A stretch of 64,000 bases of DNA, taken from the NCBI RefSeq assembly GCF_044704955.1, contig NC_091994.1:744001-808000 (forward strand), given 5' to 3'. The position numbers and the translations under genes are program-made. Positions 3,691-64,000 of this stretch are shown here, piece after piece. Position 1 is the first letter of the stretch. Every line of letters starts with the position of its first letter. Below the pieces are notes generated by a model. The model was given only the letters and a program-made list of their open reading frames with translations, searched no databases and was not told the DNA's origin. The DNA is from Pristiophorus japonicus. Lineage: Eukaryota.

Positions 3691-3719
3691 GGGACAAAAA
3701 CCCCGTCTGAGGGATATCT

Positions 3720-5740: not shown

Positions 5741-6174
5741 GTAATAACTTGGACAGACTGGGAAGAGATGGGATCGAGGGAGCTGTTTTACATTGCCTCG
5801 CTGTTGATAGTTAACTTCAAAGAAAAGACAAAATGGTTTGCATTTATCATGGAATCATAGAAATTTACAGCACGAAAGGTGGCCATTTCGGCCGACAAAG
5901 AGCTACCCAGCCTAATCCCACTTTCCAGCTCTAGGTCTGTAGGTTACAGCACTTTGTGCACATCCAAGCATTTTTAAAATGTGAGGGTTTCTACCTCTCC
6001 CACCCTTTCAGGCAGTGAGTTCCAGACCCCCACAACTCTCTGGGCAAAAAGGTTCCCCTCAAATCCCTTCTAAACCTCCTACCAATTACTTTAAATCTAT
6101 GACCCTGGTTCTTGACCCCTGGATGGGTCAGTCCTGTTCCATCCTCTCCTGACCGCGTTGTCTCCTTTCACACA

Positions 6175-6540: not shown

Positions 6541-6904
6541 TGGTCAGATGCAGTTCCACATACCTTGTACATGAGGCTATTCTGTGATCATAAGCAGTGT
6601 ATTTGAGTGTTCGGAGACGACGTATCCTTGTCTGATATCCATTTTGCAGCAGGGATCAATGAATTACGATTGTGAGCAGGGACTTTGGCTGTTTTTTCCC
6701 TGACCCGGCAGTGTGGAGCCAAATTATCCCTCGGATCAAACCTGCGAGCTCCCTGCTATCGGAAGAACTAAAGCGAATCTTTATGATGCTGGTTTTTATT
6801 CCGAATGTATCACTCACTCCTGATTTCTCCTTCCCCTTTTATTTGTATGTCCCATGCGACACATCTCCTCGGCGCAGAGAATGATGAAGGGAGATTTAAT
6901 AAAG

Positions 6905-7177
6905 GTGTTCGCCCATTTAAGACAGAGTTGAGGAGGAATTTCTTCTCTCAGAGGGTCGTGAATCTTTGGAATTCTCTGCCCCTGAGAGCTGTGGAGGCTG
7001 GGTCATTGAATATATTTAAGGTGGAGATAGACAGATTTTTGAACTATAGGTGTCAAGGATTATGGGGAGCGGGCAGGGAAGTGGAGTTGAGTCCAAGATC
7101 AGATCAGCTATGATATTGAATGGCGGAGCAGGCTCAAGGGGCCAAATGGCTGACTCCTGCTCCTATTTCTTATGTTC
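6905..7177 (+). mobile_element. CR1 3' fragment
   Basis: FKTELRRNFFSQRVVNLWNSLP and ttcttatgttc tail. Confidence 0.85.
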
Positions 7178-7207
7178 AAAATGATATGGGGTTCTGGTCG
7201 AGTAAAT

Positions 7208-7818
7208 CATCATCATCATCATCATAGGCAGTCCCTCGGAATCGAGGAAGACTCGCTTCCACTCTAAAAATGAGTTCTCAGGTGACTGAACAGTCCAATA
7301 CGGGAATTACAGTCTCTGTCACAGGTGGGACAGACAGTGGTTGGAGGAAAGGGAGGGTGGGACTGGTTTGCTGCACGCTCCTTCCGCTGCCTGCGCTTGG
7401 TTTCTGCATACTCTCGGTAACAAGACTCGAGGTGCTCAGCGCCCTCCCGGATGCACTTCCTCCACTTAGGGCGGTCTTTGGCCAGGGACTCCCAGGTGTC
7501 GGTGGGGATGTTGCACTTTATCAGGGAGGCTTTGAGGGTGTCCTTGTAACGTTTCCTCTGCCCACCTGAGGCTCACTTGCCGAGTAGGAGTTCCGATTAG
7601 AGCGCTTGCTTTGGGAGTTTGTGTCGGGCATGCGGACAATGTGGCCGCCCAGCGGAGCTGGTCGAGTGTGGTCAGTGCTTCGATGCTGGGGATGTTGGCC
7701 TGATCGAGGACGCCTGAGGAAGAGAGTGTTCGAAGATCAGGCCCTCAAATCTGGCACCAAGCTTATAGTCTACAGGACGGTAGTAATACCCGCCCTCCTG
7801 TATGGCTCAGAGACAGCA
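7208..7818 (-). mobile_element. RTE/BovB-like LINE 3' end with inverted 5' segment
   Basis: (cat)n tail at 7208; 7713-7814 is sense-orientation RLRKRVFEDQALKSGTKLIVYRTVVIPALLYGSET; TSD gagtaaat 7200-7207/7819-7826. Confidence 0.8.
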
Positions 7819-8394
7819 GAGTAAATAGGGATTAACGGTTTCCAGGGGCAGGAGGGTCGGTAACCAGAGGGCACAGATTAAAAATGATTGGCAAAAAAGC
7901 CGGAGTGGGATGAGATTTTTTTTAACAAAATGAATTTTAACCCAGAATGCGCTGCCTGAAAGAGCGGTGGGAGCAGATTCAATAGTAACTTTCAAACGGG
8001 AATTGGATCCCTACTTAAAAAGGAAACATTTGCAGAGCTATGGGAAAAGCTCAGATCATCTAAATGGCCGATTCCTGCTCCTAATTCTTATGCTCTTATG
8101 TTCGAAAAGCACAGCGGGTGTGGGTCTAAATGGATGGCTCTGTCACACAGGCACGATGGGCCGAATGGCCTCCTTCTCTGCTCTGACTCTCCTGCCAATG
8201 ACCGGAATCTGCGCAGAAGCACACTGCACATTCATCTGGAACCCGAAGATTCTTTTTTTTCCCCACACTGAGCATTTATCCCCCGCAACCCGCTCCCCCC
8301 AACCCAGTCCCCTCCCCCCCACCCCCCCCCCATGACAAACCGGCAGCACACATGCGCAGTCTGCTTCCTGTTTGTTGGCAGCAGTCGCATCCAT

Positions 8395-10697
8395 AATATT
8401 GGTCTCCGTATTTAAGGAGGGATATACTTGCAATGGAGGCAGTTCAGAGAAGGTTCACTCGGTCGATACCTGGGATGAAGGGATTGTCTTATGAGGAAAG
8501 GTTGAGCAGGTTGGGCCTATACTCATTGGAGTTTAGAAGAATGAGAGGTGATCTTATTGAAACATATAAGATTCTGAGGGGGCTTGACAGGGTAGATGCA
8601 GAGAGGATGTTTCCTGTCATGGGGGAATCTAGAACTAGGGAGCATAGTCTCAGAATAAGGGGCCGCCCGTTTAAGAAGGAGATGAGGAGGAATTTCTTTG
8701 AGGGTCATAAATCTTTGGAATTCTCTGCCCCAGAGAGCTGTGGAGGCTGGGTCATTGAATATATTCAAGGTGGAGATAGACAGATTATTGAACAATAGGG
8801 GAGTCAAGGGTTATGGGGAGCGGGCGGGGAAGTGGAGTTGAGGCCAAGATCAGATCAGCCATGATCTTATTGAGTAGCGGAGAAGGCTCAAGGAGCCGAA
8901 TGGCCGACTCCTGCTCCTATTTCTTATGAAACATAGAAACATAGAAAATAGGTGCAGGAGTAGGCCATTCGGCCCTTCGATCCTGCACCACCATTCAATG
9001 TGATCATGGCTGATCATGCAACTTCAGTACCCCATTCCTGTTTTCTCTCCATACCCCTTGATCCCTTTAGCCATAAGGGTCACATCTAACTCCCACTTGA
9101 ATATATTTAGTGAATTGGCCTCAACAACTTTCTGTGGTAGAGAATTCCACAGGTTCACAATTCTCTGAGTGAAGAAGTTTCTCCTCATCTCAGTCCTAAA
9201 TGGCTTATCCCTTATCCTTAGACTGTGACCCCTGGTTCTGGACTTCCCCAATATCGGGAACATTCTTCCTGCATCTAACTTGTCCAATCCCGTCAGTATT
9301 TTACGTGTTTCTATGAGATCCCCTCTCATTCTTCTAAATTCCAGTGAATACAGGCCCAGTCAATCCATATGTCAATCCTGCCATCCTGGGAATCAGTCTG
9401 ATGAACCTTCGCTGCACTCCCTCAATAGCAAGAACGTCCTTCCTCAGGTTAGGAGACCAAAACTGCACACAATACTTCAGGTGAGGCTTCACCAAGGCCC
9501 TGTACAACTGCAGTTATGAGGGGCCTGGATAGAATGGACAGTAAGAACCTGTTTCCCTTAGCAGAGGGGTCAATAACCAGGGGGTGGAGATTTAAAGTAA
9601 TTTTTAGAAGGTTTAGAGGGGAGTTGAGGAGAACTTTCTTCACCCAGAGGGTGGTGGGGGTCTGGAACTCAGGCCTGAAAGGGTGGTTGAAGCAGAAACC
9701 CTCACCACATTTAAAAAGTACTTGGATGTGACCTTGAAGTGCCGTAACCCACAGGGCTACGGATCGAGAGCTGGAATGTGGGATTAGGCTGGGTAGCTCT
9801 TTGTCGGCCGGCACGGATACGATGGGCCGAATGGCCTCCTTCTGTGCAATAAATTACTGTGACTCCTGAGCTTCATCAGTGCAACTCCCATGGCGGCCAC
9901 CGAGAGGCGCAAGAGAGCAGCTAAGCTTTGACCAACTTCAGACCTTAACTAAAGGACGCAAATCCTTCACTTTGTCAATTGCGACACTGTCACTAAAATA
10001 ATAGAGAATGCTGATTGTCTGTAAAGAGAAAAGACGGTTTGATGTTTTGGAGGGTGCAAGACTTCCTCAGAATTGAAAACTGAAAGATAAATAACAGGAA
10101 CACAACATTCTTCTAAGTCTCTTGAGCAAATTGTTGTGATCAAACAGCAGATATATATTCCAAGTCGGGAAATGTATTCCTCCTTCTGGTGATCTGGGGT
10201 CCTTGTACATGAAACACAAACCGTTAGCATGCAGGAAAGCAAATAGAATGTTGGCCTTTATTGCAAGGGGGATAGAGTATAAAAGCAGAGAAGTCCTGCT
10301 ACAACTGTACAGGGTATTGGTCTCCGTATTTAAGGAAGGATATACTTGTATTGGAGACTATTCAGAGAAGGTTCACTTGGTTGATTCCTGGGATGAAGGG
10401 GGTTGTCTTTTGAGGAAAGGTTGGGCCTGTACTCATTGGAGTTTAGAAGAATGAGAGGTGATCTTATCGAAACATATAAGATTCTGAGGGGGCTCGACAA
10501 GGTAAATTCTGAGAGGATGTTTCCCCTCATGGGGTAATCTAGAATTAGGGGGCATAGTTTCAGAATAAGGGGTCGCCGATTTAATTTTTGAATGATAAGG
10601 GAGTCGAGGGCTTATGGGGAGCGGGCAGGGAAGTGGAATTGAGGCCAAGACCAGATCTTATTGAATGGCCTCCTCCTGTTCCTATTTCTTATGTTCT
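8395..10697. mobile_element. Cluster of CR1 3' fragments (8395-8928 +, 8928-9513 -, 9514-9860 +, 10190-10697 +)
   Basis: CR1 ORF2 C-terminal motifs (EAVQRRFTR, LEFRRMRGDLIE, WNSLP) and ttcttatg/tttctatg tails. Confidence 0.85.
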
Positions 10698-13479: not shown

Positions 13480-15159
13480 AAAGAAAGACTTGCACTTCTA
13501 TAGCACCTATCATGATCACTGGACATCTCAACACGCTTTACAACGAATGAAGTACTTTTGGAGTGCAGTCACTGTTGTAATGTAGGAAACACGGCAGCCA
13601 ATTTGTGCACAGCTAGCTCCCACAAACAGCAACGTGATAATGACCAAATAATCTGTTTTTTGTTATGTTGATTGAGGAATAAATATTGACCCAGATCACC
13701 GGGGATAACTCCCCTGCTTTTCTTCGAAATAGTGCCCTGGGATCTTCTACAGCGACCTGAGAGGGCTTCAGTTTAACATCTCATTGGAAAGACTGCCCCT
13801 CCGACAGTGCGGGGCTCCCTCAGCACTGCCCCTCCGACAGTGCGGGGCTCCCTCAGCACCGCCCCTCCGACACTCCCTCAGTACTGCCCCTCCGACACTC
13901 CCTCAGTACCGCCCCTCCGACACTCCCTCAGTACCGCCCCTCCGACAGCGCGGCGCTCCCTCAGTACCGCCCCTCCGACAGCGCGGCGCTCCCTCAGTAC
14001 CGCCCCTCCGACAGCGCGGCGCTCCCTCAGTACCGCCCCTCCGACAGCGCGGCGCTCCCTCAGTACCGCCCCTCCGACAGCGCGGCGCTCCCTCAGTACC
14101 GCCCCTCCGACAGCGCGGCGCTCCCTCAGTACCGCCCCTCCGACAGCGCGGCGCTCCCTCAGTACCGCCCCTCCGACAGCGCGGCGCTCCCTCAGTACCG
14201 CCCCTCCGACAGTGCGGCGCTCCCTCAGTACCGCCCCTCCGACAGTGCGGCGCTCCCTCAGTACCGCCCCTCCGACAGTGCGGCGCTCCCTCAGTACCGC
14301 CCCTCCGACAGTGCGGCGCTCCCTCAGTACCGCCCCTCCGACAGTGCGGCGCTCCCTCAGTACCGCCCCTCCGACAGTGCGGCGCTCCCTCAGTACCGCC
14401 CCTCCGACAGTGCGGCGCTCCCTCAGTACCGCCCCTCCGACAGTGCGGCGCTCCCTCAGTACCGCCCCTCCGACAGTGCGGCGCTCCCTCAGTACCGCCC
14501 CTCCGACAGTGCGGCGCTCCCTCAGTACCGCCCCTCCGACAGTGCGGCGCTCCCTCAGTACTGCCCCTCCGACAGTGCGGCACTCCCTCAGTACCGCCCC
14601 TCCGACAGTGTGGCACTCCCTCAGTACCGTCCCTCCGACAGCGCGGCGCTCCCTCAGTACCGCCCCTCCGACAGTGCGGCGCTCCCTCAGTACCGCCCCT
14701 CCGACAGTGCGGCGCTCCCTCAGTACCGCCCCTCCGACAGTGCGGCGCTCCCTCAGTACTGCCCCTCCGACAGTGCGGCGCTCCCTCAGTACTGCCCCTC
14801 CGACAGTGCGGCACTCCCTCAGTACTGCCCCTCCGACAGTGCGGCACTCCCTCAGTACTGCCCCTCCGACAGTGTGGCACTCCCTCAGTACCGCCCCTCC
14901 GACAGTGCGGCGCTCCCTCAGTACCGTCCCTCCGACAGTGCGGCGCTCCCTCAGTACCGTCCCTCCGACAGTGCGGGGCTCCCTCAGTACCGCCCCTCCG
15001 ACAGTGCGGGGCTCTCTCAGCACCATCCCTCCAACAGTGCGCACTCCCTCAGTACTGCACTGGGAGGGTCAGCCTGGATTTTTGTGCGCAAGTCCCTGGA
15101 GTGGGACTCGAACCCACAACCTTCTGACTCGGAGGCGAGGGTGCTGCCCACTGAGCCAC
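13480..15159 (-). mobile_element. Full DeuSINE containing a 33-bp minisatellite (about 13795-15060, about 38 units)
   Basis: tRNA-like head at 15100-15159, Deu core 13600-13790, highly homogeneous array between. Confidence 0.9.
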
Positions 15160-29672: not shown

Positions 29673-30622
29673 GCCGTGACTCAGTGGGTAGCACCCTCGC
29701 CTCTGAGTTAGAAGGTTGTGGGTTCAAGTCCCACTCCAGGGACAAGCACAAAAATCTAGACTGACACTCCCAGTGCAGTACTGAGGGAGCCCCGCACTGT
29801 CGGAGGGGCAGTACTGAGGGAGTGTAGCACTGAGGGAGCCCTGCACTATCGGAGGGGCAGTACTGAGGGAGCGGCACACTGTCGGAGGGGCAGTACTGAG
29901 GGAGCGCCGCACTGTCGGAGGGGCAGTACTGAGGGAGCGCAGCACTGTCGGAGGGGCGGTACTGAGGGAGCGCTGCACTGTCGGAGGGGCAGTACTGAGG
30001 GAGTGCAACACTGTCGGAGGGGTAGTACTGAGGGAGTGCAACACTGTCGGAGGGGCGGTTCGGAGGGGCAGTACTGAGGGAGTGCAACACTGTCGGAGGG
30101 GTAGTACTGAGAGAGCGCTGCACTGTCAGGGGGGCAGTACTGAGAGAGCGCTGCACTGTCGGAGGGGCAGTACTGAGGGAGCGCCACACTGTCGGAGGGG
30201 CAGTACTGAAGGAGTGCCGGAGGGGCAGTACTGAGGGAGTGCCGCACTGTCGGAGGGGCAGTACTGCGGGAGCCCCGCACTGTCGGAGGGTGCCGTCTTT
30301 CAGATGAGACGTTCAACCGAGGCCCCGTCTGCTCTCTCAGGTGGACGTAAAGGATCCCATGGCACTATTTCGAAGAAGAGCAGGGGAGTTCTCCCCGTTG
30401 TCCTGGGGCCAATATTTATCCCTCAATCAACATCACTAAAACAGATTATCTGGTAATTTATCTCATTGCTGTTTGTGGGAGCTTGCTGTGCACAAATTGG
30501 CTGCCCCGTTTCCCACATTACAACAGTGACTACATTTCAAAGCAAGTACTTGATTGGCTATTCAGCGCTTTGGGACTTCCTTCGATTGCGAAAGGCATTA
30601 TACAAATGAAGTTCTTTCTTTT
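29673..30622 (+). mobile_element. Full DeuSINE with internal 33-bp minisatellite (about 29775-30290)
   Basis: A-box tgactcagtgg, B-box ggttcaagtcc, array, Deu core, tttc tail. Confidence 0.9.
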
Positions 30623-32744: not shown

Positions 32745-33549
32745 TGTCAACGGTGTCTCATTGGGTAGCACTCTCGCCACTGAATCGGAAGGTTTGTGGG
32801 TTCAAGTCCCACCCCAGCGACTTGGGGAAAGAAAAAGAGAAAGACTTGCATTTATATAACGACTTTCACAACTTCAGGACGACCCAAAGCATTTTACAAC
32901 CAATGACATACTTTTGAAGTGCAGTCACTGTTGGAGGAACTTGAGCACAGTGCCAGTACTGAGGGAGTGCCGCACTGTCGGAGGGGCAGTACTGAGGGAG
33001 TGCCGCACTGTCGGAGGGGCAGTACTGAGGGAGTGCCGCACTGTCGGAGGGGCTGTACTGAGGGAGCGCTGCACTGTCGGAGAGTCAGTACTGAGGGAGT
33101 GCTGCACTGTCGGAGAGTCAGTACTGAGGGAGCGCTGCACTGTCGGAGTGTCAGTACTGAGGGAGGGAGTGCTGCACTGTCAGAGGGGCTGTACTGAGGG
33201 AGCGCTGCACTGTCGGAGAGTCAGTACTGAGGGAGTGCCGCACTGTCGGAGAGTCAGTACTGAGGGAGTGCTGCACTGTCGGAGGGGCTGTACTGAGGGA
33301 GTGCTGCACTGTCGGAGGGGCTGTACTGAGGGAGCGCTGCACTATCGGAGGTGCCGTCTTTTGGATGAGATTTTAAACCGAGGCCCTGTCTGCTCTCTCA
33401 GGTGGGTGTAAAACATCCCATGGCACTATTTCGAAGAAGAGCAGAGGAGTTCTCCCCGTTGTCCTGGGCCCAATTTTTACCCTCAATCAACATCACTAAA
33501 ACAGATTATCTGGTCATTATCACATTGCTGTGTGTGGGAGCTTGCTGTG
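32745..33549 (+). mobile_element. DeuSINE 5' part with 33-bp array (32950-33350); resumes at 40346-40480 after nested insertions
   Basis: gagcttgctgtg| ... |ctgtgcgcaaattggc; TSD ctgtg 33545-33549/40346-40350. Confidence 0.85.
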
Positions 33550-34181
33550 AACATAAGAACATAAGAACATAAGAATTAGGAACAGGAGTAGGCCATCTAG
33601 CCCCTCGAGCCTGCTCCGCCATTCAACAAGATCATGGCTGATCTGGCCGTGGACTCAGCTCCACTTACCCGCCCGCTCCCCGTATCCCTTAACTCCCTTA
33701 TTGGTTAAAAATCTATCTATCTGTGACTTGAATACATTCAATGAGCTAGCCTCAACTGCTTCCATGGGCAGAGAATTCCACAGATTCACAACTCTCGGGA
33801 AAAGAAATTCCTTCTCAACTCGGTTTTAAATTGGCTCCCCCGTATTTTGAGGCTGTGCCCCCTAGTTCTAGTCTCCCCGACCAGTGGAAACAACCTCTCT
33901 GCCTCTATCTTGTCTATCCCTTTCATTATCTTAAATGTTTCTATAAGATCACCCCTCATCCTTCTGAACTCCAACGAGTAAAGACCCAGTCTACTCAATC
34001 TATCATCATAAGCCGAGTGAATCGTCTCTGTACCCCCTCCAAAGCCAGTATATCCTTTCTTAAGTAAGGTGACCAAAACTGCATAGAAACATAGAAACAT
34101 AGAAAATAGGTGCAGGAGTAGGCCATTCGGCCCTTCTAGCCTGCACCGCCATTCAATGAGTTCATGGCTGAACATTCAACT

Positions 34182-37100
34182 TCAGTACCCCATTCCTGCT
34201 TTCTCACCATACCCCTTGATCCCCCTAGTAGTAAGGACCTCATCTAACTCCTTTTTGAATATATTTAGTGAATTGGCCTCAACAACTTTCTGTGGTAGAG
34301 AATTCCACAGGTTCACCACTCTCTGGGTGAAGAAGTTCCTCCGCATCTCGGTCCTAAATGGCTTACCCCTTATCCTTAGACTGTGACCTCTGGTTCTGGA
34401 CTTCCCCAACATTGGGAACATTCTTCCTGCATCTAACTTGTCTAACCCCGTCAGAATTTTAAATGTTTCTATGAGGTCCCCTCTCATTCTTCTGAACTCC
34501 AGTGAATACAAGCCCAGTTGATCCAGTCTTTCTTGATAGGTCAGTCTCGCCATCCCGGGAATCAGTCTGGTGAACCTTCGCTGCACTCCCTCAATAGCAA
34601 GAATGTCCTTCCTCAGGTTAGGAGACCAAAACTGTACACAATACTCCAGGTGTGGCCTCACCAATGCCCTGTACAACTGTAGCAACACCTCCCTGCCCCT
34701 GTACTCAAATCCCCTTGCTATGAAGGCCAACATGCCATTTGCTTTCTTAACCGCCTGCTGCACCTGCATGCCAACCTTCAATGACTGATGTACCATGACA
34801 CCCAGGTCTCTTTGCACCTCCCCTTTTCCTAATCTGTCACCATTCAGATAATAGTCTGTCTCTCTGTTTTTACCACCAAAGTGGATAACCTCACATTTAT
34901 CCACATTATACTTCATCTGCGATGCATTTGCCCACTCACCTAACTTATCCAAGTCGCTCTGCAGCCTCACAGCATCCTCCTCGCGGCTCACACTGCCACC
35001 CAACTTAGTGTCATCCGCAAATTTGGAGATACTACATTTAATCCCTTCATCTAAATCATTAATGTACAGTGTAAACAGCTGGGGCCCCAGCACAGAACCT
35101 TGCGGTACCACACTAGTCACTGCCTGCCATTCTGAAAAGTACCCATTTACTCCTACTCTTTGCTTCCTGTCTGACAACCAGTTCTCAATCCATGTCAGTA
35201 CACTACCCCCAATCCCATGTGCTCTAACTTTGCACATCAATCTCTTGTGTGGGACCTTGTCGAACGCCTTCTGAAAGTCCAAATGTACCACATCAACTGG
35301 TTCTCCCTTATCCACTCTACTGGAAACATCCTCAAAAAATTCCAGAAGATTTGTCAAGCATGATTTCCCTTTCACAAATCCATGCTGACTTGGACCTATC
35401 ATGTCACCTCTTTCCAAATGCACTGCTATGACATCCTTAATAATTGATTCCATCATTTTACCCACTACCGATGTCAGGCTGACCGGTCTATAATTCCCTG
35501 TTTTCTCTCTCCCTCCTTTTTTAAAAAGTGGGGTTACATTGGCTACCCTCCACTCCATAGGAACTGATCCAGAGTCAATGGAATGTTGGAAAATGACTGT
35601 CAACGCATCCACTATTTCCAAGGCCACCTCCTTAAGTACTCTGGGATGCAGTCCATCAGGCCCTGGGGATTTATCGGCCTTCAATCCCATCAATTTCCCC
35701 AACACAATTTCCCGGCTAATAAGGATTTCCCTCAGTTCCTCCTCCTTACTAGATCCCCCGACCCCTTTTATAACCGGAAGGTTGTTCGTGTCCTCCTTCG
35801 TGAATACCGAACCAAAGTACTTGTTCAATTGGTCCGCCATTTCTTTGTTCCCCGTTATGACTTCCCCTGATTCTGACTGCAGGGACCTACGTTTGTCTTT
35901 ACTAACCTTTTTCTCTTTACATATCTATAGAAACTTTTGCAATCCGTCTTAATGTTCTCTGCAAGCTTCTTCTCATACTCCATTTTCCCTGCCCTAATCA
36001 AACCCTTTGTCCTCCTCTGCTGAGTTCTAAATTTCTCCCAGTCCCCAGGTTCGCTGCTATTTCTGGCCAATTTGTATGCCACTTCCTTGGCTTTAATACT
36101 ATCCCTGATTTCCCTTGATAGCCACGGTTGAGCCACCTTCCCTTTTTTATTTTTATGCCAGACAGGAATGTACAATTGTTGTAGTTCATCCATGCGGTCT
36201 CTAAATGTCTGCCATTGCCCATCCACAGTCAACCCCTTAAGTATCATTCGCCAATCCATCCCAGCCAATTCACGCCTCATACCTTCAAAGTTAGCCTTCT
36301 TTAAGTTCTGGACCATGGTCTCTGAATTAACTGTTTCATTCTCCATCCCAATGCAGAATTCCACCATATTATGGTCACTCTTCCCCAAGGGGCCTCGCAC
36401 AACGAGATTGCTAATTAATCCTCTCTCATTACATAACACCCAGTCTAAGATGGCCTCCCCCCTAGTTGGTTCCTCGACATATTGGTCTAAAAAACCATCC
36501 CTTATGCACTCCAGAAAATCCTCCTCCACCGTATTGCTTCCAGTTTGGTTAGCCCAATCTATGTGCATATTAAAGTCACCCATTATAACTGCTGCACCTT
36601 TATTGCACGCACCCCTAATTTCATGTTTGATGCCCTCCCCAACATCACTACTACTGTTTGGAGGTCTGTACAGAACTCCCACTAACGTTTTTTGCCCTTT
36701 GGTGTTCTGCAGCTCTACCCATATAGATTCCACATCATCCAAGCTAATGTCCTTCCTAACTATTGCCTTAATCTCCTCCTTAACCAGCAATGCTACCCCA
36801 CCTCCTTTTCCTTTTATTCTATCCTTCCTGAATGTTGAATACCCCTGGATGTTGAGTTCCCAGCCCTGATCATCCTGGAGCCACGTCTCCGTAATCCCAA
36901 TCACATCATATTTGTTAACATCTATTTGCACAGTTAATTCATCCACCTTATTGCGGATACTCCTTGCATTAAGACACAAAGCCTTTAGGCTTGTTTTTTT
37001 AACACCCTCTGTCCTTTTAGAATTTTGCTGTACAATGGCCCTTTTTGTTCTTTGCCTTGGGTTTCTCTGCCCTCCACTTTTCCTCATCTCCTTTCTGTCT

Positions 37101-38112: not shown

Positions 38113-38600
38113 GACTTAACCCTTAGATACACTTAAATTGCCGACAACAATGTTAAAAGTTACTGACTAATAAAGAAAAAGAAAAACTACTCACCAATCA
38201 GCAGCCAATTACTTACCACGTTGGCTGTGACGTCACCTTTTGATTTCTTTCTACTTCTTTTTTGACTTCTCCCAGCTGGAGCTGCACAAGTCACGCCTCT
38301 CTGGACTCCCGCCTCTCTGGACTCTCCCCGGACTGCTGAGCCTTTTATAGGCCGCTGCCTCTCTCGACTCCCGCCTCTCTCGACGCTGCCCGGACTGCTG
38401 AGCCTTTTATAGGCCGCTGCCTCTCTCGACTCCCGCCATGCAGTACTCCAGGTGCGGCCTCACCAATACCCTGTACAGTTGCAGAAGGACCTCCCTGCTT
38501 TTGTACTCCATCCCTCTCGCAATGAAGGCCAACATTCCATTCGCCTTCCTGATTACCTGCTGCACCTGCAAACTAACTTTTCGGGATTCATGCACAAGGA

Positions 38601-39144
38601 ACTCTCCTGATCTTTGGGCACCCTGTGCGGAGGGGAGTGGGTAGGTCCGAGGGCCTCCTCGTAGGACTGCTCCTGGGCACGGCCAAGGGTGCCATCAGCC
38701 GGTCCAGGCAGCGGGCGGTCGAGGGGGTCGTTCAACCTGACTGCCTGCCTCTCTTCCGTTCTTACATCCGGTCCAGGGTGTCCTTGGAGATGGAGCACGC
38801 GGTGTCCACCGGTACGCTCGCGGCCTTCCGCGAGAGGTGGGCACCGGAGGGACTGGAGTGCATCATCACGCCCGGCAACCAAATTTTAATTTGATTTTAC
38901 GTTTTAAAGTTAATTTGTTTTAATTGCCGGTGCTTTTAGTGTCCCCTTCCCTTTTATAGGGGGCACTGGGGAAAAATTGTGATTTTAGTGCCCAAAAAAA
39001 AAAGAAAAAGAAAAAAAGAAAAACACAAAAAAAAACAAAAAAAAAGGGGGGGAAAAAAAGGGCCTTGTAAATGTCTGGAGTGTCACCCAGGTCGGGTGGC
39101 ACCGTTTAATGTTTTATGTTTTGCAGGTGAACTCCAAAAAGAGT
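38601..39144 (+). mobile_element. 5'-truncated Tx1-clade LINE (ORF2 C-terminus 38601-38894 plus 3' UTR)
   Basis: TLLIFGHPV...LLLGTAKGAISRSR...LFRSYIRSRVSLE..AVSTGTLAAFRERWA resembles the Xenopus Tx1 ORF2 C-terminus; 14-bp TSD ttcatgcacaagga 38587-38600/39145-39158. Confidence 0.85.
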
Positions 39145-41039
39145 TTCATGCACAAGGACCCCCAGGTCCCTCTGCACTGCAGCATGTTGTAATTTCTCCC
39201 CATTCAAATAATATTCCCTTTTACTGTTTTTTTTCCCAAGGTGGATGACCTCACACTTTCCGACATTGTACTCCATCTGCCAAACCTTAGCCCATTCGCT
39301 TAACCTATCTAAATCTCTTTGCAGCCTCTCTGTGTCCTCTACACAACCCGCTTTCTTACTAATCTTTGTGTCATCTTCAAATTTTGTTACACTACACTCT
39401 GTCCCCTCTTCCAGGTCATCTATGTATATTGTAAACAGTTGTGGTCCCAGCACCGATCCCTGTGGCACACCACTAACTACCGATTTCCAACCCGAAAAGG
39501 ACCCATTTATCCCGACTCTCTGCTTTCTGTTCGCCAGCCAATTCTCTATCCATGCTAATACATTTCCTCTGACTCTGCGTACCTTTATCTTCTGCAGTAA
39601 CCTTTTGTGTGGCACCTTATCGAATGCCTTTTGAAAATCTAAATACACCACATCCATCGGTACACCTCTATCCACCATGCTCGTTATATCCTCAAAGAAT
39701 TCCAGTAAATTAGTTAAACATGATTTCCCCTTCATGAATCCATGTTGCGTCTGCTTGATTGCACTATTCCTATCCAGATGTCCCGCTATTTCTTCCTTAA
39801 TGATAGTTTCAAGTATTTTCCCCACTACAGATGTTAAACTAACCGGTCTATAGTTACCTGCCTTTTGTCTGCCCCCTGTTTTAAACAGAGGCGTTACATT
39901 AGCTGCTTTCCAATCCGCTGGTACCTCCCCAGAGTCCAGAGAATTTTGGTAGATTATAACGAATGCATCTGCTATAACTTCCGCCATCTCTTTTAATACC
40001 CTGGGATGCATTTCATCAGGACCAGGGGACTTGTCTACCTTGAGTCCCATTAGCCTGTCCAGCACTACCCCTCTAGTGATAGTGATTGTCTCAAGGTCCT
40101 CCCTTCCCACATTCCCGTGACCAGCAATTTTTGGCATGGTTTCTGTGTCTTCCACTGTGAAGACCGAAGCAAAATAATTGTTTAAGGTCTCAGCCATTTC
40201 CACATTTCCCATTATTAAATCCCCCTTCTCATCTTCTAAGGGACCAACATTTACTTTAGTCACTCTTTTCCGTTTTATATATCTGTAAAAGCTTTTACTT
40301 TCCGTTTTTATGTTTTGCGCAAGTTTACCTTCGTAATCTATCTATCTGTGCGCAAATTGGCTGCTGCGTTTCCCACATTACAACAGTGACTACACTCCAA
40401 AAATACTTCATTGGCTGTAATGCGCTTTGGGACGTCCTGAGGTCGTGAAAGGCGCTATAGAAACGCAAGTCTTTCTTTCTTTAACAGTACCCGGAGCACC
40501 ATCATGGCAGCCAGCGGCTGTTCAACAGTCTGAGAGACCAAATACAATTCTCTTCAAAATGTATAATAAATCTGTGACATTGTTTTATGTTTCATCTCCC
40601 AACACCTGCAGCATATTCAGAAATTCATAAACCTTTATGTGGAGGTCAAAGACCCCCCCCCCCCCCAGCTAATCTGTCATCAGCTCTAACATTCTGCTTG
40701 TCTGGTTCCTGCAGAGTTGGAATTATTCCTTTTGTGCAAATTGTGTACTGGTCCATTCCACAGGCCCGTTTAGGGGTGACATTCACTAATTTTGGTTTAA
40801 AATGTTACATATCACTTTTAAAAATAAATAAATGTAACTCCTGGTTTGAATGAAGAAGTCTGTTCAGCCTATTTGATCTAATCTTTCTAGAATAAAATTT
40901 TCACAGCCTTCGGCATCTGATTGTTAAATGAATCCCACACTTCCTGGCAATTTGTTTCAGCTGTCAACTACCCTCTGTGTAAGGAAAGACTTCCGGGCAT
41001 CTGCCTGGCGTCCTTGTCTTGTCTTCCCTGGATATCTGG

Positions 41040-41440
41040 AAGCCTCCATTTCAAAATTCTCATCCTTATTTACAAATCCTTCCATGGCCCTCGCCCCTCC
41101 CTATCTCTGTAATCTCCTCCAGCCCCACAACCCCCCGAGATGTCTGTGCTCCTCTAATTCTGCCCTCCTGACCATCCCCGATTATAATCGCTCCACCATC
41201 GGTGGCCGTGCCTTCTGTTGCCTGGGCACCAAGCTCTGGAATTCCCTGCCTAAACCTCTCTCCCTTTATTTCCTCCAAGTCGCTCCTTAAAACCGACCTC
41301 ATTGACCAAGCTTTTAGTCACCTGCGCTAATTTCTACGTATGTGGCTCGGTGTCAAATTTTTATCTCATTATACTCCTGTGAGGCGCCTTGGGACATTTC
41401 ACTACATTAAAGGTGCTATATAAATACAGGTTGTTGTTTT
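41040..41440 (+). mobile_element. L2-clade LINE 3' fragment
   Basis: Same family as 28180-28585. Confidence 0.8.
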
Positions 41441-41473
41441 TGTTTATTAGGGGAATACTTTCTGTATTATAAC

Positions 41474-42390
41474 AACATAAGATTTAGGTACAGGAGTAGG
41501 CCATCTAGCCCCTCGAGCCTGCTCCGCCATTCAACAAGATCATGGCTGATCTGGCCGTGGACTCAGCTCCACTTACCCGCCCGCTCCCCGTAACCCTTAA
41601 TTCCCTTATTGGTTAAAAATCTATCTATCTGTGATTTGAATACATTCAATGAGCTAGCCTCAACTGCTTCCTTGGGCAGAGAATTCCACAGATTCACAAC
41701 CCTCTGGGAGAAGAAATTCCTTCTCAACTCAGTTTTAAATTGGCTCCCCCGTATTTTGAGGCTGTGCCCCCTAGTTCTAGTCTCCCCGACCAGTGGAAAC
41801 AACCTCTCTGCCTCTATCTTGTCTATCCCTTTCAATATTTTAAATGTTTCTATAAGATCACCCCTCATCCTTCTGAATTCCAACGAGTAAAGACCCAGTC
41901 TACTCAATCTATCATCATAAGGTAACCCCCTCATCTCCGGAATCAGCCTAGTGAATCGTCTCTGTATCCCCTCCAAAGCTAGTATATCCTTCCTTAAGTA
42001 AGGTGACCAAAACTGCACGCAGTACTCCAGGTGCGGCCTCACCAATACCCTGTACAGTTGCAGCAACACCTCCCTGCTTTTGTACTCCATCCCTCTCGCA
42101 ATGAAGGCCAACATTCCATTCACCTTCCTGATTACCTGCTGCACCTGCAAACTAAAAAAGAGTTTCATGCACAAGGACCCCCAGGTCCCTCTGCACCGCA
42201 GCATGTTGTAATTTCTCCCCATTCAAATAATATTCCCTTTTACTGTGTTTTTTTCCAAGGTGGATGACTTCACACTTTCCGACATTGTATTCCATCTGCC
42301 AAACCTTAGCCCATTCGCTTAACCTATCGAAATCTCTTTGCAGCCTCTCTGTGTCCTCTACACAACCCGCTTTCCCACTAATCTTTGTGT
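41474..42390 (-). mobile_element. CR1 family B 3' fragment carrying a Tx1 terminal remnant at 42155-42163
   Basis: Near-identical to 45090-46020 in reverse; aaaaagagt replaces target bases before ttcatgcacaagga. Confidence 0.9.
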
Positions 42391-42574
42391 CCTCTATTAA
42401 GCCACAACACCTTGCATTTATATAGCAACTTTAACATTGCTTCACCGGAGCGATTATCAAACAAAATGACACCGAGCCCCGTAAGGAGATATTAGGACAG
42501 GTGACCAAAAGCTGGGTCAATGAGGTCGGTTTTAAGGAGCGTCTTAAAACATCAGCGAGAATTGGAGAGGTTTA

Positions 42575-45500
42575 CATAGAAACAGAGAAACATAGAAAAT
42601 AGGTGCAGGAGTAGGCCATTCGGCCCTTCGAGCCTGCACCACCATTCAAATAAGATCATGGCTTATCATTCACCTCAGTACCCCTTTCCCGCTTTCTCCA
42701 TACCCCTTGATCCCTTTAGCCGCAAGGGCCATAACTAACTCCTTCTTGAATATATCCAACGAACTGGCCTCAACAACTCTCTGTGGTAGAGAATTCCACA
42801 GGTTAACAACTCTCTGAGTGAAGAAGTTTCTCCTCATCTCAGTCCAAATGGTCTGCACCTTATCCTTAGACTGTGTCCCCTGGTTCTGGACTTCCCCAAC
42901 ATCGGGAACATTCTTCCCGCATCTAACCTGTCCAGTCCCGTCAGAATCTTATACATTTCTATGAGATCCCCTCTCATCCTTCTAAACTCCAGTGAATACA
43001 GGCCCAGTCGATCAGTTTCTCCTCATATGTCAGTCCTGCCATCCCGGGAATCAGTCTAGTGAACCTTCGCTGTACTCTCTCAATAGCAAGAATGTCCTTC
43101 TTCAGATTAGGAGACGAAAACTGAACACAATATACCTAGTGAGGCCTCACTAAGGCCCTGTACAACTGCAGTAAGACCTCCCTGCTCCGATGCAGTAAGA
43201 CCTCCCTCTCCTATATTAAAACACTCTACCTAAATGCACGCAGCATTCGAAATAAAGTAAATGAGTTGACGGCACAAATCATTACAAATGGGTATGATTT
43301 GGTGGCCATTACAGAAACGTGGTTGCAGGGTGGCCAAGACTGGGAATTAAACATACAGGGGTATCTGACGATTCGGAAGGATAGACAAGAAGGGAAAGGA
43401 GGTGGGGTAGCTCTGTTAATAAAAGATGATATCAGGGCAGTTGTGAGAGACGATATTGGCTCTAATGAACAAAATGTTGAATCATTGTGGGTGGAGGTTA
43501 GAGATAGTAAGGGAAAAAAGTCACTGGTGGGCGTAGTTTATAGGCCCCCAAATAATAACTTCACGGTGGGGCGGACAATAATCAAGGGAATAATGGAGGC
43601 ATGTGAAAAAGGAACGGCAGTAATCATGGGGGATTTTAACCTACATATCGATTGGTCTGATCAAATCGCACAGGGTAGCCTGGAGGAGGAATTTATAGAA
43701 TGCATACGGGATTGTTTCTTAGAACAGTATGTTACAGAACCTACAAGGGAGCAAGCTATCTTAGATCTGGTCCTGTGTAATGAGACAGGAATAATAAACG
43801 ATCTCCAAGTAAAAGATCCTCTCGGAATGAGTGATCACAGTATCGTTGAATTTGTAATACAGATTGAGGGTGAGGAAGTAGTGTCTCAAACAAGCGTACT
43901 ATGCTTAAACAAAGGGGACTACAGTGGGATGAGGGCAGAGTTGGCTAAAGTAGACTGGAAACACAGACTAAACGGTGGCACAATTGAGGAACAGTGGAGG
44001 ACTTTTAAGGAGCTCTTTCATAGTGCTCAACAAAAATATATTCCAGTGAAAAAGAAGGGCGGTAAGAGAAAGGATAACCAGCCGTGGATAACCAAGGAAA
44101 TAAAGGAGAGTATCAAATTAAAAACCAATGCGTATAAGGTGGCCAAGGTTAGTGGGAAACTAGAAGATTGGGAAAATTTTAAACGACAGCAAAGAATGAC
44201 TAAGAAAGCAATAAAGAAAGGTGGTGGTCCCTTCGAAGATGAGAAGGGGGATTTAATAATGGGAAATGTGGAAATGGCTGAGACCTTAAACAATTATTTT
44301 GCTTCGGTCTTCACAGTGGAAGACACAAAAACCATGCCAAAAATTGCTGGTCACGGGAATGTGGGAAGGAAGGACCTTGAGACAATCACTATCACTAGGG
44401 AGGTAGTGCTGGACAGGCTAATGGGACTCAAGGTAGACAAGTCCCCTGGTCCTGATGAAATGCATCCCAGGGTATTAAAAGAGATGGCGGAAGTTATAGC
44501 AGATGCATTCGTTATAATCTACCAAAATTCTCTGGACTCTGGGGAGATACCAGCGGATTGGAAAACAGCTAATCTAACGCCTCTGTTTAAAAAAGGGGGC
44601 AGACAAAAGGCAGGTAACTATAGGCCAGTTAGTTTAACATCTGTAGTGGGGAAAATGCTTGAAGTGATCATTAAGGAAGAAATAGCGGGACATCTAGATA
44701 GGAATAGTGCAAATTAAGCAGACGCAACATGGATTCATGAAGGGGAAATCATGTTTAACCAATTTACTGAAATTCTTTGAGGATATAACGAGTATGGTGG
44801 ATAGAGTTGTACCGATGGATGTGGTATATTTTGATTTCCAAAATGCATTCGATAAAGTGCCACACAAAAGGTTACTGCAGAAGATAAAGGTACGCGGAGT
44901 CAGAGGAAATGTATTAGCATGGATAGAGAATTGGCTAGCTAACAGAAAGCAGAGAGTCGAGATATATGGGTCCTTTTCGGGTTGGAAATCGGTGGTTAGT
45001 GGTGTGCCACAGGGATCGGTGCTGGGACCACAACTGTGAACAATATATATAGATGACCTGGAAGAGGGGACAGAGTGTAGTGTAACAAAATTTGCAGATG
45101 ACACAAAGATTAGTGGGAAAGCGGGTTGTGTAGAGGACACAGAGAGGCTGCAAAGAGATTTGGATAGGTTAAGCGAATGGGCTTAGGTTTGGCAGATGGA
45201 ATACAATGTCGGAAAATGTGAGGTCATCCACCTTGGGAAAAAAAACAGCAAAAGGGAATATTATTTGAATGGGGAGAAATTACAACATGCTGCGGTGCAG
45301 AGGGACCTGGGGGTCCTTGTGCATGAATCCCAAAAAGTTAGTTTGCAGGTGCAGCAGGTAATCAGGAAGGTGAATGGAATGTTGGTCTTCATTGTGAGAG
45401 GGATGGAGTACAAAAGCAGGGAGGTCCTGCTGCAACTGTATAGGGTATTGGTGAGGCCGCACCTGGAGTACTGCGTGCAGTTTTGGTCACCTTACTTAAG

Positions 45501-46620
45501 GAAGAATATAGTAGCCTTGGAGGGGGTACAGAGACGATTCACGAGGCTGATTCTGGAGATGAGGGGGTTACCTTATGATGATAGATTGAGTAGACTGGGT
45601 CTTTACTCCTTGGAGTTCAGAAGGATGAGGGGTGATCTTATAGAAACATTTAAAATAATGAAAGGGATAGACAAGATAGAGGCAGCGAGGTTGTTTCCAC
45701 TGGTCGGGAAGACTAGAACTAGGGGGCACAGCCTCAAAATACGGGGGAGCCAATTTAAAACCGAGTTGAGAAGGAATTTCTTCTCCCAGAGGGTTGTGAA
45801 TCTGTGGAATTCTCTGCCCAAGGAAGCAGTTGAGGCTAGCTCATTGAATGTATTCAAATCACAGATAGATAGATTTTTAACCAGTAAGGGAATTAAGGGT
45901 TACGGGGAGAGGGCGGGTAAGTGGAGCTGAGTCCACGGCCAGATCAGCCATGATCTTATTAAATGGCGGAGCAGGCTCGAGGGGCTAGATGGCCTACTCC
46001 TGTTCCTAATTCTTATGTTCTTATACTCAAATCCCCTAGCTATGAAGCCCAACATACCATTTGCCTTCTTCAATGCCTGCTGTACCTGCATGCCAACTTT
46101 CAATGACTGATAAACCATGACACCCAGGTCTCGTTGCACCTCCCCTTTTCCTAATCTGCCGCCATTCAGATAATATTCTGCCTTCGTGTTTTTACCACCA
46201 AAGTGGATAACCTCACATTTATCCACATTACTCTGCATCTGCCATGCATTTGCCCACTTGCCTAACCTGTCCAAGTCACCCTGCAGCCTCTTAGCGTCCT
46301 CTTCACAGCTCACACCACCACCCAGCTTAGTGTCATCTGAAAACTTGGAGATATTACATTCAATTCCCTCATCCAAATCATTAATGTATATTGTAAATAG
46401 CTGGGATCCCAGCACTGAACCTTGCGACACCCCACTAGTCACTGCCTGCCATTCTGAAAAGGACCCGTTTATCCCGACACTCTGCTTCCTGTCTGCCAAC
46501 CAGTTCTCTATCCACGTCAGTGCATTACCCCCAATACCATGTGCTTTAATTTTGCACACCAATCTCTTGTGTGGGACCTTGTCAAAAGTCCAAATACACC
46601 ACATCCACTGGTTCTCCTTT
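42575..46620 (-). mobile_element. CR1 family A fragment (42575-43212, 46021-46620) split by the family B insertion, itself inside an L2 relic (42400-42570, 46630-46830)
   Basis: cctata| ... |tatactcaaatcccc collinear with 34690-34715. Confidence 0.75.
43213..46022 (+). mobile_element. CR1 family B ORF2 (APE+RT) to 3' end, inactivated
   Basis: LNARSI..AITETW..MGDFN..SDH; internal deletion at about 44220, frameshift near 44710, stops at 45037 and near 45184. Confidence 0.93.
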
Positions 46621-47599
46621 GTGCAATCTACCAGTTAGAGGGAGTTCCAGAGCTTCGGGCCCAGACAGTTGAAGGCACGGCCACCAATGGTAGGGTGAAG
46701 AACGTGGGGGTTAGGCCATGAGCCCCCAGAGTTGGAGGAACTCTGTGATCTTAGAGGGTTGTAAAGCTGGAGGAAGTTACAGATAGGGAAAGGGGAGGCC
46801 ATGGAGGGATTTGAACAGAAGGATCAGGAAGTACTTTTTAAACCTCTCTGAGACTTCTCTTTCTGAGGCTGAACAGCCTTTGCAAAGTTTAAATGGTTTT
46901 ACACTCTAATTTGTGATCATTACCCTCACTCATCGTGACATTTCATTAATGCTATCAGGCCTGTCCATACCTTTCAAAGCACATTTTCAGCTTTCTAACT
47001 AATTGCAGACTGAGCACAGAAATGACCCAGATATAAATCTTTGCCATTGATAACTATGTTGTAACAATTTGTACAGGTCTGCAAGTTGACAACTACAGAA
47101 ACTCAAAATGCATCTCTGAATTCTACAAATACTGTCTCAATACAGGATTCCAAATTCATTCAACCTTCTGCTCAATTTTGCTGCAATTAAAGCACTTTTA
47201 AAACATATATTTTTTCAAATGCATGCACAATACCTGGTAATATAAGGAATCTTTGCAAATCAGCTCCAAAAATGTGGGGATAAAATGCAATCTCCCTGAA
47301 CAGAATACTCATGTGGTGCAGAGTGTTGGGGCTGTAAACACTTCCCAGCAAAACTGAAAGTAACCTGCCAATATCCCACAATGCAGTTGAGCAGATTTAA
47401 TGTTATTTTACTACAAAGTGATGGATGTGTGACCCTGTGACCCTGCATGTGTGTGACCCTGTGACCCTGCATGTGTGTGAGCCTGTGACCTGTGACCCTG
47501 CATGTGAGACAGCCCGCAGGGTGCATGGCTCAGCAGCACAAGGCTTTATTCCTATTGTCCCCTGCACAGCCCACCCCTGGAGCCTGGGACCCTGAGTGA

Positions 47600-48212: not shown

Positions 48213-48478
48213 TGTCGGAGGGGCAGTACTGAGGGAGTGCCGCACTGTCGGAGGGGCAGTACTGAGGGAGTGTCGGAGGGGCAGTACTGAGGGAGTGCCG
48301 CACTGTCGGAGGGGCAGTACTGAGGGAGTGCCGCACTGTGGGAGGGGCAGTACTGAGGGAGTGCCGCACTGTCGGAGGGGCAGTACTGAGGGAGCGCCGC
48401 ACTGTCGGAGGGGCAGTACTGAGGGAGCGCCGCACTGTCGGAGGGGCAGTACTGAGGGAGTGCCGCTCTGTCGGAGGG
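48213..48478 (+). repeat. 33-bp SINE-derived minisatellite
   Basis: About 8 units, 30 bp into ANKLE1 intron 1, without the rest of the SINE. Confidence 0.9.
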
Positions 48479-53559: not shown

Positions 53560-54535
53560 CACTTGAAACCCTCATCCGTGCCTTTGTTACCTCAGACTTA
53601 ACTATTCCAACACACTCCTGGCCGGCCTCACACATCCTACCCTACGTAAACTAGAGGTGATCCAAAACTTGGCTGCCCCATGTCCGAACTCACACCGAGT
53701 CCTGCTCACCCATCACCCGCTGTGCTCGCTGCCCCGTGTCCTAACTCGCACCGAGTCCTGCTCACCCATCACCCCCTGTGCTCGCTGCCCCGTGTCCTAA
53801 CTCACACCGAGTCCTGCTCACCCATCACCCCCTGTGCTCGCTGCCCCGTGTCCTAACTCTCACCGAGTCCCGCTCACCCATCACCCCCTGTGCTCGCTGC
53901 CCCGTGTCCTAACTCGCACCGAGTCCCGCTCACCCATCACCCCCTGTGCTCGCTGCCCCGTGTCCTAACTCGCACCAAGTTCCGCTCACCCATCACCCCC
54001 TGTGCTCGCTGCCCCGTGTCCTAACTCGCACCCAGTCCCGCTCACCCATCACCCCCTGTGCTCGCTGCCCCGTGTCCTAACTCGCACCCAGTCCCACTCA
54101 CCCATCACCCCCTGTGCTCGTTGACCTACATTGGCTCCCGGTTAAGCAACGCCTCAATTTCAAAATTCTCATCCTTGTTTTCAAATCCCTCCATGGCCCT
54201 CGCCCCTCCCTATCTCTGTAATCTCCTCCAACCCCACAATCCCCCGAGATCTCTGTGCCCCTCTAATTCTGCCCTCCTGAGCATCCCTGATTATAATCGC
54301 TCCACCATCGGTGGCCGTGCCTTCTGTTGCCTGGGCCCCAAGCTCTGGAACTCCCTCCCTAAACCTCTCCGCCTCTCTACCTCTCTCCTCCTTCAAGTCG
54401 CTCCTTAAAACCCACCTCACCTGCGCTAATTTCTATGCAGCTCATGTCAAATTTTTAATCTCCTAATGCTCCTGTGAAGCGCCCTGGGACGTTTCACTAC
54501 GTTAAAGGCGCTATATAAATGTAAGTTGTTGTTGT
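53560..54535 (+). mobile_element. L2 3' fragment with internal 56-bp tandem array (about 53675-54120, about 8 units)
   Basis: Unit ctcacccatcaccccctgtgctcgctgccccgtgtcctaactcgcaccgagtcccg; single copy in the L2 at 50575-50635. Confidence 0.88.
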
Positions 54536-63002: not shown

Positions 63003-63662
63003 CATCAAACACTCCCAGCGCAGGTACAGCACGGGATTAGATACAGAGTAAAGCTCCCTCAACACTGTCCCATCAAACACTCCCAGGGCAGGTACAACAC
63101 GGGATTAGATACAGAGTAAAGCTCCCTCGACACTGTCCCATCAAACACTCCCAGGGCAGGTACAGGGGGTTAGATACAGAGTAAAGCTCCCTCTACACTG
63201 TCCCATCAAACACTCCCAGGGCAGGTACAGGGGGTTAGATACAGAGTAAAGCTCCCTCTACACTGTCCCATCAAACACTCCCAGGGCAGGTACAGGGGGT
63301 TAGATACAGAGTAAAGCTCCCTCTACACTGTCCCATCAAACACTCCCAGGGCAGGTACAGCACGGGGTTAGATACAGAGTAAAGCTCCCTCTACACTGTC
63401 CCATCAAACACTCCCAGGGCAGGTACAGGGGGTTGAATACAGAGTAAAGCTCCCTCTACACTGTCCCATCAAACACTCCCAGGGCAGGTACAGGGGGTTA
63501 GATACAGAGTAAAGCTCCCTCTACACTGTCCCATCAAACACTCCCAGGGCAGGTACAGGGGGTTGAATACAGAGTAAAGCTCCCTCTACACTGTCCCATC
63601 AAACACTCCCAGGGCAGGTACAGGGAGTTGAATACAGAGTAAAGCTCCCTCTACACTGTCCC
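63003..63662 (+). repeat. 65-68-bp minisatellite (about 10 units)
   Basis: catcaaacactcccagggcaggtacagggggttagatacagagtaaagctccctctacactgtcc; a diverged monomer lies in reverse at about 27950-28012. Confidence 0.93.
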
Positions 63663-64000
63663 AGGAACTCAACAGCACCTGGATTGAGACTGTGTAACTC
63701 ATTTAAGGAAGGACCCTTGCAGCCAGCAGTGGAGGAGTTGTGTCGGGTGGAGGCGAGGTGAAACCCACCTGCACCGTCCTGCCCCCAGGTTTAGATTTGA
63801 AGGGTTTGTTGTGAGCCCCTCTTGCAGCTCGGTGCGTAAATCCTGTCGAGAAACTGAGCCCAGGAACCCGCGAGATTGCATGGTCTGTGTCTGACCTGTG
63901 ACGGGTTTACCGATCGCGCCCAGGGTTGTGGTCAGGTTGCTGATGGTGGTCCTGGAATCCTACAACATAGGAGGAGGCCATTCGGTCACCATGCCCGTGC

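Follow-up and report, generated by a model that had tools for sequence, protein, structure and literature searches.

We analysed a 64,000-nucleotide stretch of the Pristiophorus japonicus genome (contig NC_091994.1, positions 744,001 to 808,000; hereafter the window), which carries three copies of a CR1-type long interspersed nuclear element (LINE), family B, two of them interrupted at the same place in their second open reading frame (ORF2) by a piece of a Tx1-clade LINE. Having followed both repeats through the genome, we regard it as highly probable that the intruder represents an autonomous Tx1-clade LINE that inserts antisense at one 14-base site in CR1 ORF2, likely by target-primed reverse transcription (TPRT) from a nick made by its own apurinic endonuclease-like (APE) domain, that builds arrays, and that has changed its target once.

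The target 14-mer, TTCATGCACAAGGA, occurs in the window at 38587-38600, 39145-39158 and 42164-42177 on the forward strand and at 45314-45327 on the reverse strand, with a one-mismatch version at 10200-10213. At two mismatches or fewer there are five matches, against a mean of 0.87 and a maximum of 3 in shuffled sequence, and none of 100 shuffles reached five. The features of the locus are as follows.

38437..38586, reverse strand: part of ORF2 from CR1 family B copy 1, downstream of the site in CR1 orientation (95.7% identical to 45477-45314)
38587..38600, forward strand: left target-site duplication, 14 bp, from the 14-mer search
38601..38894, forward strand: Tx1-clade ORF2 C-terminus, 97 codons plus stop, from its match to Tx1-type ORF2 C-termini
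38895..39144, forward strand: Tx1 3' untranslated region (UTR), 250 bases, without poly(A), ending in AAAAAGAGT, of the young 'alpha' subfamily type
39145..39158, forward strand: right 14-bp copy of the target-site duplication, within the V-L-V-H-E codons of DLGVLVHES when read on the CR1 strand
39159..40326, reverse strand: CR1 family B copy 1, reverse-transcriptase (RT) region continuing upstream (39145-40258 is 95.6% identical to 45327-44212)
41468..42154, reverse strand: 3' end of CR1 family B copy 2, comprising the ORF2 C-terminus and the tail repeat (41468-42395 is 95.7% identical to 46025-45096)
42155..42163, forward strand: Tx1 3' terminus remnant, 9 bases, with a 10-11 base target deletion
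42164..42177, forward strand: 14-mer adjoining the 3' end of insertion 2, from the 14-mer search
42178..42395, reverse strand: rest of CR1 family B copy 2 to its 5' truncation, from the repeat alignment
45314..45327, reverse strand: unoccupied site of CR1 family B copy 3, whose CR1 lies on the forward strand at about 43190-46025

Insertion 1 comprises 544 bases between two 14-mers, lies antisense to the CR1 reading frame and is 5'-truncated at base 6652 of a natural copy of 7,195 bp (L041, bases 2306-9500 of the stretch C1:240921720-240931719; L numbers denote genomic loci). Insertion 2 consists of the last nine element bases abutting the 14-mer, with the upstream 10-11 target bases gone and the duplication absent. 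Elsewhere in the genome, L061 and L074 hold inserts of 12 bases flanked by a full duplication, and target deletions accompany the insertions at L119 and L141, so this nine-base remnant falls inside the normal insertion spectrum. In copy 3 the ORF2 stop follows the empty site by about 600 bases and the CR1 3' end follows it by ~700. These three states agree with the original prediction, which had read 38601-39144 as a Tx1-like 3' fragment antisense in a family B CR1 with a 14-bp duplication (borne out by the ORF2 C-terminus and the flanking TTCATGCACAAGGA copies), 42155-42163 as the same terminal bases joined to the 14-mer after loss of about 10 target bases (10-11 by alignment), and 45314-45351 as an empty site (the exact 14-mer at 45314-45327 of an uninterrupted CR1). 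The three CR1 copies are pairwise 96.1, 96.1 and 96.4% alike over 357 bases, and these equal distances exclude the concern that the two occupied copies are one duplicated locus. Copies of a second CR1 family, A, at 34096-35968, 42589-43186 and 46020-46631 are ~70% identical to family B, lack the 14-mer and are unoccupied within the window; elsewhere, one young Tx1 copy (contig C1, 26456277) has a family-A-like flank and sits ~8 bases off the homologous position.

The Tx1 element and its target across the genome

Using 10-kb stretches around 14 of the best genome matches (20 stretches), we modelled the full-length element as 7.2 kb with two ORFs: a 5' UTR of ~920 bases, ORF1 of 699 amino acids and ORF2 of 1,299. 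ORF2 matches the Pfam domains Exo_endo_phos (6-227), RVT_1 (512-761) and, below the curated cut-off, zf-RVT (1137-1180), and its endonuclease matches structures of the L1 endonuclease (L1-EN) at E about 1e-20. ORF1 gave a weak zf-CCHC match (200-215, E 0.004, below cut-off) and Atlas look-alikes among CCHC and ZCCHC3-type RNA-binding clusters (0.90-0.94). An intact APE-RT-zinc finger ORF2 with its catalytic residues was found in 12 of 12 young copies, and the full 1,306-codon frame is kept in 33 of the 150 best protein matches, a set picked by score and biased toward young copies. Alignment to Tx1L of Xenopus, which UniRef names 'Transposon TX1 uncharacterized 149 kDa protein', gave 49% identity across 1,297 positions. 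In a 20-row RT tree, built without L1 and without named Keno, Mutsu, Dewa or Kibi sequences, the element pairs with a ray protein inside a seven-row set that includes the Xenopus Tx1L, turtle and sturgeon proteins (99/96). Its sequence thus places the element within the Tx1 clade; the closest named relatives of both the Tx1 and the CR1 repeats are in sharks and rays. An Rfam scan of the 5' junction and UTR (1,151 bases) returned 18 weak matches, none near the gathering score, and no ribozyme.

To gauge site preference we counted exact sequences on both strands of the whole 5.9-Gb assembly, with a reversed-pattern control of zero. The element end joined to the target 14-mer occurs 15,664 times and an internal ORF2 23-mer 16,265 times. 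The longer junction that includes the CR1 flank occurs 6,088 times and the empty family B site 20,084 times, which puts occupancy of exact family B sites at ~23%, a figure that is approximate, the two patterns being unequal in length. With the window C-terminus as query, the matches listed were all near-identical copies, and the first-look candidates for this 97-residue segment numbered 55,440 against the 16,265 exact-word copies, which points to more diverged copies or further Tx1 families.

Among the first 100 copies found by the internal word (70 loci read, as 30 and 40, and 30 placed by distance to a listed junction), 84 end in the B site and three in a second site, D, described below; the remaining 13 are one copy with a short duplication inside a B-site array and 12 that are off target, interrupted or without an end. 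When sampled instead by the young element's terminal letters (14,283 matches in all), 87 of 100 ends lie within two mismatches of the 14-mer, counted by eye. Target specificity has been defined as more than 20% of flanks falling in one repeat (PMC4494074; sources given by PMC number are cited from the accessible part of their text), and the shares here are 84 and 87 of 100. The specificity of the young element is strong yet not absolute, at about 85%. Other CR1 subfamilies bearing the 14-mer are also occupied (L038, L040, L099), indicating that specificity tracks sequence rather than one CR1 subfamily. At L036 a target variant is present on both flanks of the insert, and the off-target copies L114, L120, L132 and L146 are bounded by 11-14 bp repeats of unrelated sequence, each starting TTC; together these identify the 14-mer as a genuine target-site duplication. 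Insert lengths range from 9 bases to 7.2 kb, with widely varied truncation points and 5' junctions. The original prediction of a CR1-targeting Tx1 element is supported, and the outcome it named as refuting, mostly unrelated 3' flanks, was not seen. Its view of an element specialised for one CR1 family holds for the single ORF2 position genome-wide and needs amending in that the preference is about 85% and follows the 14-mer into several CR1 subfamilies.

Head-to-tail copies with the 14-mer between units are common, and one locus (C1:9,710,120-9,765,228) has nine junctions, mostly ~7.2 kb apart. Array neighbours often have an identical 5' truncation or junction quirk yet diverge by several percent along their length, and their 3' UTR types differ, splitting five of six multi-unit loci (not L070). 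In 36 unrelated pairs the first 5' mismatch never falls beyond position 32. Between full-length neighbours it falls at 74, 88, 744 or 2,005 in four of seven pairs and at 7, 17 and 22 in the remaining ones; the long array has values of 112 and 868. Plain duplication accounts for the near-identical units U4-U6 of one array. The common 5' junctions of otherwise divergent neighbours suggest that a new copy finishes its 5' end on the resident copy.

Words of the element also occur in 20 sequencing runs from nine studies, none of them listed as RNA. We compared the contigs of four runs, from four other organisms (B, C, D and E), with L034 in 30 bins. Organisms B and C cover 26 and 30 of the bins with ORF2 pieces about 96-99% alike, organism E covers 29 with ORF pieces about 80-90% alike, and organism D, at low depth, covers 17 and was not counted. 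No piece bridging the element-CR1 junction was present among the displayed contigs of those four organisms. The coverage in B, C and E indicates that the family is not confined to the present assembly.

A sister subfamily in a second CR1 family

The three sampled copies assigned to the D site terminate in TCTGTGGACAAGCA, which occupies the equivalent codons (DLGVLVHRS) of a different CR1 family, D. The sister end joined to the D site occurs 636 times genome-wide, and all 30 D-site junction loci that were read have sister-type ends, with a 3' UTR type distinct from the young one; the sister subfamily is about 90% identical to the young element. Sampled by their own letters and counted by eye, 100 sister ends (of 684) comprised 75 of D type, none of B type and 25 others, while the 100 young ends included 87 of B type and none of D type, even with 4,320 exact D sites still unoccupied. 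B and off-target sites also contain an intermediate end type (the L053 group, L114). The original prediction had placed the insertion site correctly and had overlooked both the full-length arrays and this sister subfamily with its separate CR1 host family.

In a tree of 86 copies (1,045 columns from the 3' part of ORF2, with non-spanning copies left out and D rows chosen by junction), one branch (100/99) sets the 21 D-site copies apart from all the others, so the tree needs a single target switch. Tips of the D-site copies are 0.022-0.05 long, against mostly less than 0.02 elsewhere, and median flank identity is 90.5% for CR1-D (300 pairs) versus 95.6% for CR1-B (91 pairs). Together, these values pair the older subfamily with the older CR1 family and the younger subfamily with the younger family, and the lineage likely retuned its endonuclease as its host CR1 family was replaced.

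Young and sister ORF2 differ at 37 diagnostic positions out of 1,299. Candidate endonuclease changes for the switch are G15E, D21N, I65T, S67C, G74A and C159S. Aligned to L1-EN, I65 corresponds to Lys70, G15 adjoins Asn19 and H113 corresponds to Asn118, and these three L1-EN residues contact DNA in L1-EN complexes (PMC8565326).

Several further observations concern the element ends. The full-length sister copies (L181-L200, C1) join the target after nine bases via a common GGAC, which suggests microhomology-primed second-strand synthesis; truncated sister copies have 13-14 base duplications. Sister-type copies also occur at other CR1-like sites (L081 at C1:91144-94166, C1:75123846 and C1:341733520), one near a CR1 ORF2 C-terminus and two at seemingly homologous codons of further CR1 families. 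The last 30 bases of the young element (39115-39144) share the 10-base word TTTGCAGGTG and an 8-base word, in swapped order, with the CR1 sense strand just past the site (45328-45357), a post hoc comparison against which 15 of 3,000 random window 30-mers have a word of at least 10 in common; the sharing is weak in sister ends. The young end folds into a short hairpin that is lengthened by the first target bases. Sister ends have it weakly or not at all, and we set aside a conserved terminal hairpin as a feature of the element.

Proposed insertion mechanism and competing explanations

The element likely inserts by TPRT with a sequence-specific APE endonuclease that nicks the two strands 14 bases apart. 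A first nick, at the 14-mer's edge and in the sense strand of CR1, would prime reverse transcription from the 3' end of the RNA, and a second nick ~14 bases along the opposite strand would yield the 14-bp duplication. The duplicated site would stay targetable, allowing later copies to pile up head to tail, and a new copy would often take its 5' end from the resident neighbour, as the common 5' junctions suggest. Lying ~700 bases from the CR1 3' end, the site would be retained in most 5'-truncated CR1 copies, offering tens of thousands of mostly harmless landing places. In the older sister, insertion would have gone to the matching codons of an older CR1 family, and a few endonuclease substitutions probably underlay the single switch. 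The endonuclease of Tx1L, acting alone, nicks its target almost exclusively (PMC1950540).

Some points weigh against this interpretation. Off-target copies make up about 13-16% of the young and 25% of the sister subfamily, and these samples are the first places along contigs C1-C2, including tandem units and segmental duplicates rather than independent events, while the terminal-letter patterns demanded a non-G at +15 and slightly under-count off-target ends. The endonuclease is not enriched for diagnostic changes (7 of 240 positions versus 37 of 1,299 in ORF2), the beta-hairpin loop has none, and H113Q is ruled out as a required switch residue, Q being kept in two of 12 young B-site copies. 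Pairing of read-through RNA, and not the endonuclease, could also decide part of the target choice.

In its full form, this last possibility holds that the 3' bases of a read-through transcript pair with the nicked strand, that the endonuclease is only loosely specific, and that a subfamily thereby re-hits its own site. Read-through target RNA is known to play a role for R1Bm. The lack of a poly(A) tail, the very precise 3' junction and the ease of read-through in arrays all fit, as does the resemblance of off-target sites to the start of the subfamily's own target, TTC(A) for the young element and TCTG or TGT for the sister. An endonuclease preference, however, predicts the same first-base bias, three to four paired bases could not, in a genome of 5.9 Gb, direct 85% of copies to a single 14-mer unless the cut itself were specific, and the Tx1L enzyme is specific by itself (PMC1950540). 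We consider RNA-guided choice unlikely.

A separate question is whether the insertions harm CR1. The host repeat has an RVT_1 domain in ORF2 and an 8-base tail repeat, and its best ORF2 relatives, none labelled CR1, are bird RT-domain proteins (40-49% identical) and a ray protein (64%). The LINEs of birds are chiefly CR1. Birds are also described as being without L2 (PMC13343379). The RT-bearing ORF2, the bird relatives and the short tandem tail point to the CR1 clade for the host repeat. The insertion interrupts ORF2 in every occupied copy. The term hyperparasite, used in the original prediction, is unsupported in the sense of harm to CR1. Only two of the 150 best CR1-B matches, found with a mutated window copy as query, keep a frame of at least 900 amino acids, so the insertions probably land mostly in dead CR1 copies. 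The simplest reading is that Tx1 lodges in a repeat that is abundant and for the most part dead.

A true hyperparasite would knock out active CR1 masters and help drive the turnover of CR1 families, and the interrupted ORF2, the ~23% of exact B sites reached and the move from an older to a younger CR1 family are what it would produce. Against this, CR1-B looks mostly decayed while the young Tx1 has many intact frames, three quarters of the sites are empty, and no escape variant was seen, the exact 14-mer being kept in 27 of 29 scored best CR1-B copies (30 loci examined). Tracking of the more abundant CR1 family also accounts for the switch without harm. We find this account improbable, and are equally doubtful of the broader picture of a LINE lineage living inside LINEs that retunes its endonuclease to the same codons of the dominant CR1 family, cuts active ORF2s and helps drive CR1 succession. 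An arms race between Tx1 and CR1 is possible.

The junctions might instead descend from a few CR1-Tx1 composites multiplied by CR1 retrotransposition, segmental duplication or unequal crossing-over. Near-identical groups exist (L053/54/55/58/64 and L052/56/59/65), array units U4-U6 are near-identical, and L031 and L036, on different contigs, have the same truncation point. This origin is nevertheless very improbable in view of the several occupied CR1 subfamilies, the range of insert lengths from 9 bases to 7.2 kb, the many distinct 5' junctions and the array neighbours that are mostly several percent apart. We rejected CR1-carried composites for both look-alike groups, which share flanks outside CR1 and are segmental duplicates. 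The start of the largest contig (C1:0.2-3.3 Mb, L052-L065) holds repeated near-identical multi-kb blocks that are young segmental duplications. That the 14-mer is merely the element's own 3' end, with the CR1 link a by-product, is practically untenable: nearly all copies do terminate in the same 14 bases, but off-target copies without the 14-mer and with other duplications refute it, L036 has a target variant on both sides, CR1 sequence picks up in register on either side, and sister copies abut another family's 14-mer.

Apart from these repeats, the window has a dispersed repeat family containing a minisatellite of 33-base period, in five copies (967-1842, 13792-15058, 29775-30290, 32954-33357 and 48213-48478), and tandem arrays whose periods are near 50, 56 and 65-68 bases (3721-5400, 53672-54126 and 63003-63663).

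Relation to known elements and significance

The targets of Mutsu and Dewa are among 5S and tRNA arrays. Other target-specific Tx1 families insert into U2, microsatellites, a piggyBac element, Mariner, Harbinger and long terminal repeat (LTR) retrotransposons, with Keno, Kibi, Koshi and Tx1-Mar having targets among U2, microsatellites and Mariner (PMC4494074). None of these named families' targets is matched here, where the target is a LINE ORF2. The closest parallel is Tx1L of Xenopus laevis, which shares the sequence-specific insertion into another transposon, 49% ORF2 identity and the same branch of the RT tree. It differs in that its target, Tx1D, is a non-autonomous piggyBac DNA transposon (PMC4494074) rather than LINE coding sequence, and the beta-hairpin loop of the present family is three residues shorter. 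Crocodilian Tx1-Mar, Tx1-8_Crp, Tx1-4_AMi and Tx1-9_AMi likewise prefer one place inside another transposon, namely Mariner-N4, LTR retrotransposons or Harbinger (Kojima 2015, PMC4494074). In the accessible part of that source, whose Fig. 3 labels and supplements may list more, they have no CR1 or other LINE target; the present family is set apart from them by ~85% specificity over more than 15,000 junctions, by its arrays and by the target switch.

R1 in Drosophila ribosomal DNA (rDNA) also combines an APE-type endonuclease with 14-bp duplications, arrays built by re-insertion into the duplication and occasional target deletions (Stage and Eickbush 2009, PMC2718515). It belongs to another clade, and its target is the conserved 28S gene, whereas here it is a repeat family that turns over. 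Target change within a site-specific lineage has a precedent in R8 and R9 of the R2 lineage, which are old shifts to other rDNA sites (PMC5035012), unlike the two subfamilies described here, which reside in one genome, differ at 37 ORF2 positions and use homologous codons of two CR1 families. We found no Tx1 family targeting CR1 or another LINE in full-text searches of mostly open-access literature, with Repbase and Dfam outside the comparison, and no CR1-targeting Tx1 in the accessible parts of PMC4640811, PMC3747384, PMC5035012 and PMC13343379. That such an element has already been deposited as a known family is a real possibility, if the lesser one. The kind, a Tx1 that targets another transposon, is known; the present case is distinguished by the LINE target, the very high copy number, the R1-like arrays and the dated-looking switch between homologous codons.

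Collectively, these findings add LINE coding sequence to the target range of site-specific retrotransposons. With upwards of 15,000 junctions, roughly one in four exact sites occupied and as many as nine units per array, their scale should be relevant to the repeat annotation of very large cartilaginous-fish genomes. Given that the family has intact young copies, it could be assayed as a vertebrate site-specific integration system. Grafting of hairpin loops failed to transfer specificity modularly (PMC1950540), and the switch between close subfamilies in one genome makes it testable which residues set the specificity of APE-type retrotransposon endonucleases. If the insertions did cut active CR1 copies, LINE would be set against LINE in an arms race, and the two subfamilies would supply naturally paired endonucleases, about six residues apart, that read different 14-mers.

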